A stretch of DNA of 64,000 bases, from positions 62,001 through 126,000 of the forward strand of contig CM038998.1 of NCBI GenBank assembly GCA_017499595.2. Direction: 5' to 3'. Source of the DNA: Psilocybe cubensis (taxonomy: Eukaryota). The position numbers and the translations under genes are program-made. The notes beneath the pieces were generated by a model. It ran no database searches and was not told where the DNA came from. It worked only from the letters and a program-made list of their open reading frames with translations. The first letter of the stretch is position 1; the number at the start of each line of letters is the position of its first letter. This document shows positions 45,413 through 64,000 of the stretch, piece after piece.

Positions 45413-45815
45413 CACTGCGGGCTCCGATACATGTTTGATGTCAAACATCGTCAATCAAACACATATTATGTAAGAAGACGATGTTTGATGTCAAACATAA
45501 GTTGTGTTTGCTGACAAACAAGCATCAAACATAAGTTATGTTTGATAGGCATGTGATATCAAACACAACGTATGTTTGACGCCTGTTTGTCAAAGAACAC
45601 GGGCTTGACAGAAAATCTGTCAAGTTCGCTGTAAGATAACAAACGTACATTGTGTTTGATAAATAGTGTTTGATTCCAAATATAACTCCTGTTTGATAAT
45701 TTGTGCATGAAATCATCCGTATATTCTGTATGTTATCGACCATAAACATCAAACATAAGTTGTGTAAGAAATCAAACATAATATCTGTTTGAAATCAAAC
45801 AGATTGTCAAACAGA
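45413..45815. mobile_element. Putative left terminus of a CACTA/En-Spm-type element: CACTG start plus subterminal repeats
   Basis: CACTGCGGG at 45413 is followed by ~20 TGTTTG(A)/(T)CAAACA motifs in both orientations, including palindromes ATGTTTGATGTCAAACAT (45431, 45481) and ATCTGTTTGAAATCAAACAGAT (45783). Confidence 0.6.
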
Positions 45816-46439
45816 CATCGACACGCTCATCGTGCCGCTCAGCGCGCGCCTCCTCGCGCGATCAGCGCGCGCTTGACGCGCGATCGGCGCGCGTTGAGCG
45901 ACACGCCCAGCGATTTTACGGCTATTTTGGCGTCTCGGTGATAAGCGACACACCTCACCAACGCTACTTAGGCGCTTGTGTATTCAGCGACGAGAACACG
46001 CTCTTCATTCAATAACGCTGTATCAGTGACGCATGTTTATTCAGCGAGAAAAAACGTATTTTCGAGTGAAATATATGTATTTTTGGGGCTCGGGTGTGTC
46101 CTACTACCATACACATAAATTGACAAATGCTACACAGTCAAAGCTGCTTTTCTCCCTTCTTATTTCTAGAACCTGAGTCTCTATTTCACTGTAGTAGCAA
46201 TGTATATACTCACATCAATGTATTTTATTCGTTTGCCATCGTTTGCCATTGCCTTCTATGAATTGATGTCTCTCAGAACAACTTTCTCGCAGTCTCTTAT
46301 CACTCACCACACTCCCACTCACTCACCACACTCACTCACACTCACTCACCACACTCACCACACTCGCTCTCACTCGCTCAAACACATTCATTCATCGTCC
46401 TCGCTCATCACGCCCTCTATCAACATCGATATTCGTACC

Positions 46440-46983
46440 ATGTCCACAATAGTCTCCAACATCTTTTCCACCATCGTTTCCTTCGTCAACGGCATCAAAT
46501 ACGGATTCGCGTCGGGATGCGAGATCGTGGAGTGGTTATGCACGTACGGAGGGCCCGCCTTCGGGGCGATAGCTCGCTACATCAACAAAAATAGCGAAGC
46601 GCCAGTTGTTCTGCGAAATCGTAGCGGTATGCCAGTGAGTATTTGTAGCTTTGAACAGCGTCTTACCGCTCCTTTCAGGAGGAAAGTTGATCAGCGACAT
46701 GGAGGCTCAACACTCACCAGCCAACGACGCCGATTTCGAGGAACTCATCCGCGTTCGCCAGGAGATTAAAACCCTGAAAAAAATTCTCGACAATCGAAGC
46801 GCACGTACTCGGCCTGGTACATCGGAAGCGCACGAAATTCAGCTCGACCGCTTCGAACTTGAGCGCAAGAAAGTTCTCAACGATATCGCGATCGAGGCCC
46901 AAATACGTGCCACCTACCCTGCGCGAGCCCTGTATCTCGCAATGTGCGAGACATACGATGTCGCTCCTGTCCGCACCGACTAG
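46440..46983 (+). CDS. Small two-exon hypothetical protein (~163 aa, helical/coiled-coil C-terminal half)
   Basis: ATG 46440. Intron 46627-46678 (GTATGC...TTCAG) joins ...RNRS to GGKLISDMEAQ...VAPVRTD*. Preceded by a CACT-rich pyrimidine leader. Confidence 0.55.
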
Positions 46984-61573: not shown

Positions 61574-61721
61574 AATCTGCATCTGCGTATCCTTCTAATT
61601 TGAAACGTGCCCTAGATTTCTTTTGTACATTTATGATATCGGATAATGACATTTTGCTGAGTAACCTGACTACATGCATCGAAGCTATGATCTACACAGT
61701 TTTCCATTATGTTCTCAGTGG

Positions 61722-64000
61722 TCAAAGAATTTGCCTATCTACAGGTCGGAGTCGGGATAAAGATACACATACAGCGACGTCTCTATCTTCCCATGGGATG
61801 ATACATTTGGCAAAGTGTCCTTCTACAGCTGAAAAAGGAAGGACTTCGAGGATATCTTGGACGTCGGTTCCCCATAGTTTGGCACGAAAATGAACCCACG
61901 GGATATAAGGATCGTATTTGACCCCCGCTTCTTGGTATCGATTAACCACAAACCATATATCATCCCTAAGTACTTTTTTAGGAAACTTGAGGACATTCTT
62001 GATACGGTAGGGCACATTTGACGCATTGAGGACCCCGCTATTGCCTTCATGTACGTCCCAAGATGTATAAGATATCCGACCAACGCGATAACGGTTTGTA
62101 TACATTGCCCGCGCGGGCACGGTTGTCACACCATACCGTAAAAATGCCCGAGTAATGTCCATCTTTAACACCACCGCACGTCGATCATCGTATGGGATGG
62201 CTTCTTCTTGAAGATCTTCTTCGCTTTCCTCGTCGTCTGTCTCAGTGTCATCGTCGGCCTCAGCATTTGCGACATCGATTGTCTCTGCTTCTCCTGCGAG
62301 TATGTACCGTCCTTGGGGCATCACCAACTTGCGAAAGATCGGCCAACAGTCCCGAATAGCTTGTGGACATCCTGGTCTTTGAAAAATTGCCATAAGTTTG
62401 GACCTTCTGTGCCAGGAAGTCGCAATTGTTTCCTCGTACTCGCCTACTATAGATCAGTAACCATGAAAGAGCAGGCAACAGGTAAAGCAAATTACCTTGC
62501 TTGTAATTTGTGGGAATTCTTTGCAGCATCCCAATCATACGTTCGAAGGGAAACGTCCACCAACCATGAACAGGCCCATATTCGATGATAAACTCCCTCA
62601 TATGCATAGCCATATGATGATTAGGAACACACTGGTAGCTTGGAAACAGCCTTGAAAGCTCGGAACGGTATTGTACCATCAAATTCAGGTATTCATTGGC
62701 CATAGCTGGTGATGCGACCCGGGAAGTGATGACAGATATGGCCTCAAAAAGAAGCATCGTGAGGCGCAAAAGTTCTCGACGTGTTTGGGCAGGTTTCGAA
62801 TGGTCAATTCCCGACCATATTCGGATGAGGGTAACTGGGATGTAAAGTGCTGCCGCAATGCGCCATTGGTCTGATTTGAGTTTTCCACTCTTTGCGGACA
62901 TCGACCAGGGTAACGACGAGACCCATGACGGTTTTACCATAGCTGCAATGTCTCGTCGGATGGATTTCATGTCTTCTGCTGTAAGTATCTTTCCCTGCTT
63001 GCCATCCACTTCTGAAGTAGCCTGGCTTGACTGTGACTGGCCGAAATTTTTAGTTGTTAGAAGAATTGAAAAATTTAACAACGTACGGATCTTTCTTTAC
63101 GCTATTCACCGCGTATTAAACTATCAGATTGATGTTGAGGTAACGACGATGCAGACGTACCCATTGAACAAGCATTTGGGCCAGATCTTCTTTCTTGACT
63201 CGCATCATACCATTTAACGTGTCCCGGCCACGATTGGTGATGGTAGAGGGTATACACCCCAGATGTTTACCAACAAAAACAAGGGCTTCTGCTGCGGTCT
63301 TCTTTGCCAACTCGTTTGCTACGTCGGCATCTTCGATTGGAAGAGGCTCTGCCAACCATTTTCTGATGATGCGTATTCCTTTTTGACCAGACTCTGAGGT
63401 TGGCAAAGGATTACTTTCATTGCCCTCAATGTTTTGTAATATAAAGCTATCGCTCGATATAGGTGTTTGTTGTTTCTTCTTCTGCTTGGGTAAATCAGAA
63501 CCGTCACCGAGAATGTGCTGAAAATGCTCTTTGATGAGTCCAAGAAAAAGGTTATGCATCGGGTCTACAACAAGGCTCATGGTTGGCCGATAATAGGGCA
63601 ATCGATGAAATTCTGACGTGCGCAATCCGGATTTGTCGAAAAGGCTTGCAGCGGCCTTTTCGGAGGGGGCTGCCTGGTATTTCCAGGCACCATCTCGACA
63701 TTCGTCATCGGTGCGCCATGTCCATTTTTCATAATCGAAGTTGTTGAATGTATGCACAGTTTTACTACACCAGCACATCGAACAGAAATATTCCTGATTG
63801 TATGAAGAAAATCCACCAGCCTTCCGTGCTGCAGGAAGATCGGCGATGATTGCAAGAAGAGCACAAAGAATAATGCGCCCCATAGCGTAAAGAGCGGTGC
63901 GCGTAAAAAAAACACCCACCCAAAACAGCAGGAAAGTGTCAACAATAGGGCGGAAGTATGGGTTTGCTGCTTCTAGACTGGGTTCATTGGGACCCGGAAT
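61722..64000 (-). CDS. CACTA/En-Spm (Tnp2-like) DDE transposase, 5' part outside window
   Basis: IPGPNEPS...PIVD, IIADLPAARKAGG...FCSMCWC, VDPMHNLFLGLIKEH, GKLKSDQWR and PNHHMAMH...YGPVHGWWTFPFERMIG are hallmark motifs of fungal CACTA-type transposases. Introns near 63122-63160 and 62447-62496. Confidence 0.9.

Follow-up and report, generated by a model that had tools for sequence, protein, structure and literature searches.

We examined a 64,000-nucleotide stretch of Psilocybe cubensis DNA (contig CM038998.1 of assembly GCA_017499595.2, positions 62,001 to 126,000 of the forward strand), referred to below as the window, with coordinates counted from its first letter. From 45413 to its right edge, the window carries a terminus starting with CACTG, an array of short motifs in both orientations, passenger DNA that includes a broken mitochondrial carrier gene, and the C-terminal part of a Tnp2-family transposase gene that reads back toward the terminus. 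An earlier sequence-only reading had taken this interval for one large, cargo-carrying fungal element of the Pack-CACTA kind, with its right end past the window. After comparison with protein families and with sequencing data from other strains, we consider it probable that a CACTA/EnSpm (CMC) DNA transposon of an agaricomycete, present in many copies and recently mobile, has its outer end exactly at 45413.

The CACTG terminus, its motif array and the transposase gene

Across the left boundary, the plus strand reads GAA followed by CACTGCGGGCTCCGATACA, with the element side beginning at 45413. CACTA/EnSpm termini begin with 5'-CACTA/G and are arranged as inverted repeats. The outer terminus of the present element (45413..45431, plus strand; its 3' end relative to the transposase gene) starts with CACTG, and CACTGCGGGCTCCG at 45413 on the plus strand occurs a single time in the whole window. 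When the terminal 14-mer was searched on both strands with up to three mismatches, six further matches were found in the window, compared with 3.67 expected in shuffled sequences. Because this is chance level, the window holds no inverted partner of the terminus. A metagenome scan with the 26-nucleotide (nt) terminus gave 0 matches.

Immediately inside the terminus lies a subterminal array (45432..45815) of TGTTTGA/TCAAACA motifs. Exact copies within 45432-45813 number 17 (8 on the plus and 9 on the minus strand), and with 5 further copies that have one mismatch the array holds 22 motifs over 403 bp, often paired in inverted orientation. Counted on both strands, TGTTTGA occurs 44 times in the whole window, compared with 15.2 ± 4.2 times in shuffled sequences, and none of 100 shuffles reached 44. 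A scan of all 7-mers over the whole window in 500-bp steps ranked this array top, with 17 copies per 500 bp, and revealed no second comparable array in 46-64 kb. The CACTG start with about 20 inverted and direct motifs, as described in the sequence-only reading, was thus confirmed as the densest 7-mer cluster of the window, and it matches the subterminal arrays of short motifs in both orientations that characterize CACTA elements. The array is followed by GC-rich short repeats of the GCGCGC type (45816..45920), whose length varies among copies: in the reads of a related strain (run X13), they were shorter by 80 nt in 9 reads and by 45 nt in 7 reads.

At the right edge of the window, three open frames on the minus strand of 61725..64000 make up the C-terminal ~815 codons of a transposase gene of the Tnp2 family (CACTA/EnSpm), at 64000-63119 (294 residues), 63096-62263 (278 residues) and 62453-61725 (243 residues). 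The family was recognized through its relatives. A HMMER search with the first piece against 1.84 billion representative proteins returned 2,293 proteins at an E-value of ≤0.001 and 91 at ≤1e-30, and 16 of the 17 long relatives scanned exceeded the Pfam cut-off for Transposase_21, several of them also containing DUF4218. Identity to the closest database relatives was 40-53%, the nearest named ones (40-49%) being proteins of Panaeolus, Armillaria, Mycena, Galerina and Ganoderma. In tblastn comparisons, 12 of 12 relatives aligned collinearly over all three frames, from 64000 to 61749, where the C-termini of the relatives themselves are reached. Because of this collinearity, we read the two breaks as short introns, predicted near 63097-63118 and 62454-62490, and the visible part of the gene as undamaged.

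The position that aligns with 64000 has 222-574 residues ahead of it in the relatives, which places the N-terminus of the transposase beyond the window, and this outer part should carry the first two catalytic residues. Within the visible part, the motifs kept in at least 90% of 24 aligned sequences are D54 in DLPA.RK, a C-x-x-C at 73-76, and D146-x-MHNL-x-LG...H159; which of these conserved positions would be catalytic can be assigned provisionally from the alignment. A C(2)C motif between catalytic residues is described as typical of this transposase clade (PMC12730594). Thus, of the proposed, apparently intact Tnp2-like transposase reading toward the CACTG end, the family and direction were upheld by the relatives, while "intact" holds for the portion inside the window. 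No second, TnpA-like gene was recognized in the visible part of the element. In maize En/Spm, a Tnp2-type transposase gene is transcribed toward the end that bears the long array. The terminus, the layout and the transposase place the element in CACTA/EnSpm.

Copies, mobility and forms of the element in other strains

Twelve public sequencing runs, from four studies, covered 40413-50412. We compared 44001-64000 with the raw reads of run X13, for which depths are the sum of both mates, and with the contigs of runs X11, X6 and X10, for which word depths are a rough measure. In X13, read depth was 22-29 on the flank (44001-45334) and rose to 238-372 over 45335-54672, 434-590 over 54673-56006 and 142-191 over 56007-64000. 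Throughout 45413-64000 it stood 6- to 15-fold over the flank, and 30,503 of 34,787 reads had at least 99% identity to the window, so that the copies are near-identical. Loose read ends were concentrated at two adjacent positions, with 125 before 45412 and 286 before 45413 (411 in total), and their outside letters agreed with each other at just 0.43 and 0.40, respectively. Because of this low agreement, many different flanks meet one exact boundary, the C of CACTG; the 45412 class has the size expected when one flank base matches by chance.

In X11, record 9 is a contig of 14,584 nt whose word depth (23) is that of single-copy DNA. It aligns through its letters 7000-8387 with 44016-45412, and among the matches listed its alignment ends exactly at 45412, though at least 6,197 letters continue. 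Since a contig necessarily breaks where single-copy sequence gives way to a repeat of depth 89, this X11 site is without the element, and it looks like an empty site in that strain. Two expectations of the sequence-only reading, that homology of other copies starts exactly at CACTG and that another strain holds an empty site, are thereby supported. Copy levels relative to the flank also differed by strain. Depths on the flank, the left part and the transposase half were 23, 89 and 47.6 in X11 (about 4-fold on the left and about 2-fold on the right) and 63-71, 362-537 and 269 in X10 (about 5-8 and about 4). The element therefore shows the mobility of a CACTA transposon, with copies in different flanks and presence or absence among strains, and the near-identical copies, the strain-variable copy number and the element-free site indicate that the family has moved recently. 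Internally deleted forms were also present in X13, lacking 2,777 bp (47889 joined to 50667; 13 reads) or 82 bp (38 reads).

Other differences among strains were recorded over the same region. Of 139 differences between X13 and the window in 44001-64000, flank and element pooled, 79 were C>T (36) or G>A (43), an excess that might be expected if methylated cytosines in repeated DNA had been deaminated. Within the transposase half, other strains carry 238 extra letters at 56375/56376 (seen in an X11 contig and as loose ends in X6 and X10), and there is a tract of about 22 C at 56146-56161.

The left part of the element was more abundant than the transposase half. The ratio was 1.4 in X10 (362-385 versus 269), 1.45-1.8 in X6 (123-154 versus 84.8), 1.85-2.0 in X11 and about 1.9 in X13. 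The two parts meet in the segment of highest copy number, 54768..56044, which in X13 has one alternative fixed context on each side. Behind 56044, 247 reads entered a single alternative sequence (agreement, 0.99), which was also present in one contig each of X11, X6 and X10, and before 54768, 205 reads came from a single alternative sequence (agreement, 0.99). Neither alternative had any match in the window with up to 3 mismatches, and therefore they are not rearranged window sequence. On inspection, the first ~25 letters of the alternative behind 56044 appear to be a diverged version of the window's own. The segment 54768-56044 is a conserved module common to several forms. Because the left level exceeds the right level, copies must exist that have the left part but another continuation after 56044; these may be transposase-less derivatives or members of a subfamily with a right half of below 95% identity. 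Transposase-less derivatives occur as dSpm-type elements. The family thus has several forms, with the left 10.6 kb in common and differences to the right of 56044. Self-comparison also revealed a foldback at 54917..57927, with arms at 54917-55460 and 57378-57927 that are ~78-85% complementary.

From the CACTG rightward, the element extends over at least 18,588 bp and runs on beyond the end of the window. Three contigs that cover the transposase half (X11 record 15, X6 record 23 and X10 record 8) all end exactly 3,776 nt past 64000, and X10 record 1 starts at 45432, near the left end. The part of the transposase beyond 64000 needs about 0.7-1.8 kb. Because contigs break where copies diverge, as at the left end, we infer a right end ~3.8 kb past 64000, near window coordinate 67,776, and an element of ~22.4 kb.

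Passenger DNA and the left neighborhood

Passenger DNA, about 9 kb of it, separates the array from the transposase and makes up roughly half of the visible element. We scanned this interior with Pfam, using 165 stop-to-stop open reading frames (ORFs) of at least 55 codons over 45.0-64.0 kb. The clearest passenger is a fragment of a mitochondrial succinate/fumarate carrier gene at 48744..49597 on the minus strand, identified by Pfam and by alignment with homologues. Mito_carr was found in three ORFs at 48642-49561, with scores of 52.3, 42.7 and 24.9 bits (cut-off, 22.3), and the family is the succinate/fumarate transporter, with 80-90% identity in Agaricomycetes (1,032 matches). Against full-length proteins of 319 residues, the alignment of the fragment covers no more than residues 80-314 and is good only from about residue 116 onward. 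Its first ~79 codons are absent, two intron-sized gaps are kept, and a frameshift near 48845 interrupts a conserved stretch between KGITP and RVLRVAPGQ. The carrier thus reads as a 5'-truncated, broken copy of a host gene and not as a working gene, and since introns are retained, uptake took place at the DNA level. The second carrier ORF had no match in PDB.

A database protein of 262 residues labelled Psilocybe cubensis (P0159) is 91-95% identical to the carrier fragment, including its out-of-frame tail, and this identity suggests a gene model that derives from a related copy of the element. Near the limits of the carrier homology, similarity to the window is lost behind 49736 in contigs of three strains and before 48745 in one, and the 49337-50003 bin shows extra word depth in the three contig runs; the divergence and the extra depth may reflect the resident parent carrier gene or a variant copy.

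The other pieces were weaker. An endonuclease/exonuclease/phosphatase-like fragment in two frames at 47631..48795 on the plus strand matched Exo_endo_phos (23.1 bits) and Exo_endo_phos_2 (24.1 bits), both below threshold, and had Atlas leads of 0.79-0.80. No reverse transcriptase was found behind the endonuclease-like pieces at 47631-48795, which probably are the remnant of a retrotransposon without long terminal repeats (non-LTR). The ORF at 49872-50507, for which Pfam gave 0 families, presumably resembles the ORF2 tail of such a non-LTR element. On the minus strand at 50902..51213, a Peroxin-3-like stretch precedes a Pro/Gln-rich low-complexity frame. Its match to PF04882 is marginal (29.7 bits versus a cut-off of 27.6; profile positions 63-142 of 458), with about 30 convincing residues, and neither a search of longer proteins nor PDB gave a match. 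A candidate C-terminal fragment of importin-beta at 54397..54729 on the minus strand covers 35 residues, corresponding to residues 798-832 of an 882-residue chain in PDB (E-value, 0.052); in Pfam, an importin-beta repeat of 36 residues scored 22.6 bits versus a cut-off of 29.1. The ORF at 53657-54094 was considered as a fragment of a membrane ubiquitin ligase and rejected, with Pfam and PDB matches at chance level.

An intron-bearing gene, delimited from the sequence and its ORFs, lies at 59745..61573 on the plus strand, convergent with the transposase gene. It has weak beta-propeller leads, and no Pfam family was recognizable, the best E-values of 0.027-0.038 being far below the cut-offs. It shows the copy level of the transposase half and may be either a further passenger or a gene with an accessory role in the element. 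None of the 165 interior ORFs had a TET/JBP, reverse transcriptase, Helitron (helicase/Rep) or tyrosine recombinase domain in Pfam, and readings of the interval as a Starship-like element, a Helitron or a TET-bearing element were dropped for lack of such domains. Of the mosaic of unrelated gene fragments described in the sequence-only reading, the carrier thus stands firmly, while Peroxin-3 is marginal and the endonuclease and importin-beta pieces are below threshold. The element therefore carries a host-gene fragment, as Pack-TYPE elements do, by virtue of the carrier, the other pieces being weak.

To the left of the element, 1-6950 and 13201-20150 form a direct duplication of 6,951 bp with 99.96% identity, 13.2 kb apart. 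Both copies carry a dense GGAGGCCGGCCTCC-type array, with 14 CGGCCTC per 500 bp at 6.5 and 19.7 kb, and the duplication may be another large repeat or transposon end. Directly after the second copy, two tandem units of ~220 bp (20616-21050) each end in six CCCTAAA (20788-20829 and 21009-21050); these repeats are internal and of the 7-nt rather than the 6-nt telomere type. An ankyrin-repeat protein gene with four 204-bp tandem units is located at 24706-25932, and 28891-37094 is occupied by an intron-bearing gene that is repeated in tandem in five diverged copies (60-80% identity) and for which none of the ORFs scanned matched Pfam. At 38569-42058 lies a gene for an ISWI-type chromatin remodeller (SNF2, Helicase_C and SLIDE), which like the ankyrin-repeat gene is an ordinary gene.

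Alternative explanations and relation to known elements

Several points weigh against reading the whole interval as a single CACTA/EnSpm transposon. The right terminus and the target duplication lie past the window edge, and the window is without an inverted copy of the terminus. The contig stop at +3,776 could mark a branch point inside the element instead of its terminus. The transposase pieces in the window themselves fall below the Pfam thresholds (Transposase_21, E-value of 0.011; DUF4218, E-value of 0.014), and the carrier is the sole firmly identified piece of cargo. For the empty site, 23 matching pieces were listed and 239 more exist, among which there may be another piece of X11 record 9 that lies on the element. 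Moreover, no listed contig of another strain bridges 54.5-57.5 kb, and because of this the link of the left part to the transposase half depends on one assembly. Lastly, the sequence-only reading had treated everything as one element; the whole 18.6 kb is indeed repeated, mostly at 99% identity or more, but the copy level of the left 10.6 kb is 1.4- to 2.1-fold that of 56045-64000 in all four data sets.

The last two points would be accounted for if the interval were a composite, with a transposase-less CACTA derivative (45413-56044) and the right 8 kb of a separate, related element joined across 54768-56044 by recombination or an assembly jump. The single alternative left and right contexts of the shared 1.28-kb segment agree with this, and the read counts fit a left part with the alternative right plus an alternative left with the transposase half about as well as the arrangement in the window. 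However, the assembly of the window runs contiguously through the segment, and the alternative behind 56044 starts as a diverged homologue, which suggests subfamilies of one element and not unrelated DNA. A terminus-like motif array is also missing from 46-64 kb, and a transposase reading toward a long subterminal array is the layout expected of a single CACTA element, so that we regard a composite as unlikely. Giant inverted arms offer another way to obtain two copies of the left part for each transposase half, with the left 10.6 kb repeated in inverted orientation at the far end of an element of ~33 kb. Ratios near 2 in X13 and X11 agree with such arms, as do the single continuation behind 56044 and the shared stop of the transposase-half contigs, as if the repeat began there. 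This model needs a ratio of at least 2, however, and the values in X10 and X6 stay below it, rough as word depths are; we consider it very improbable. There is hardly any probability that the interval is not mobile, that is, that ordinary host genes or a segmental duplication begin by chance near CACTG. The interval does hold gene-like pieces, but they are truncated or frameshifted, and the many flanks starting at one exact base with a 6- to 15-fold depth, the Tnp2 transposase and the motif count that no shuffle reached all speak for a transposon.

If the interval is read as a CACTA/EnSpm transposon, its mobility can be described as follows. The element would consist of the CACTG terminus, the 400-bp bidirectional motif array and the Tnp2-type gene transcribed toward that end. 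Both ends would be paired by the Tnp2 DDE transposase, acting either by itself or together with another protein of the element that binds TGTTTGA, and the entire interval would then be cut and pasted. We infer that the interval moves as one unit, and the passenger DNA would be amplified along with it. The passengers would have entered at the DNA level, through aberrant repair, aberrant excision or nested insertion.

Fungal EnSpm elements are described with ends of 5'-CAC..GTG-3' and 3-bp target duplications (PMC12730594), and CMC/EnSpm elements are reported to have expanded in Agaricomycetes (PMC5751038). Like plant En/Spm and fungal EnSpm elements, the present element has a CAC(TG) start, direct and inverted subterminal motif arrays, a Transposase_21 and DUF4218-like transposase reading toward the long array, and internal variants with a common end. 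Unlike them, it measures at least 18.6 kb, about half of the visible length being passenger DNA. Plavaka elements are described with termini of TGT..ACA or CATCA..TGATG (PMC12730594). Membership in Plavaka (CMCT clade) was rejected, the terminus being CACTG and the Plavaka Pfam match of the transposase pieces having an E-value of 0.024. EnSpm and Plavaka elements of Agaricales are reported to carry extra genes, such as TET/JBP (PMC12730594); like these, the present element is a CMC-type element of Agaricales with genes besides the transposase, but its passengers are broken fragments and not an intact accessory enzyme. Helitrons of Pleurotus ostreatus are reported to capture host gene fragments (PMC4289320). 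They resemble the present element as basidiomycete transposons with captured host gene fragments and differ from it in superfamily and mechanism, and no helicase/Rep domain was found in the ORFs scanned over the interval.

Pack-TYPE elements are described as non-autonomous by definition, and Pack-CACTA elements as reported from plants (PMC6379663, PMC8903248). Like plant Pack-CACTA elements, the present element carries host-gene fragments with retained introns, captured at the DNA level and amplified with the element. Unlike them, this copy has a transposase gene of its own at 61725-64000 and beyond, and in the strict sense the "Pack-CACTA" label of the sequence-only reading does not apply. 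Copies that share the left part without a transposase half at 95% identity or more might be Pack-like. No fungal Pack-CACTA element and no fungal CACTA element with captured host fragments appeared among the matches listed in our literature search, which covered titles and abstract openings, with subscription journals and Repbase outside its scope. The element is a good example of a kind well known in plants and fungi and involves no new principle.

To our knowledge, CACTA/EnSpm elements are abundant in Agaricomycetes, few of them have defined ends, and the pickup of host DNA has been documented mainly in plants. The present element is a useful case in this respect, with an end mapped to the base, signs of recent movement and a clearly host-derived gene fragment. 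It also aids the correct annotation of such genomes, in which at least one database protein (P0159) appears to be modelled on a passenger fragment, and it makes it possible to examine whether CACTA elements shuffle gene fragments in fungi. Tentatively, we can go one step further and suppose an active family in which a transposase-bearing master of >20 kb coexists with transposase-less relatives that have a 10-kb module of captured fragments in common, amounting to Pack-CACTA-like gene shuffling in a fungus. If this is true, the family would still be moving between strains, and crosses could be used to trace the capture of gene fragments and what it does to host genes.

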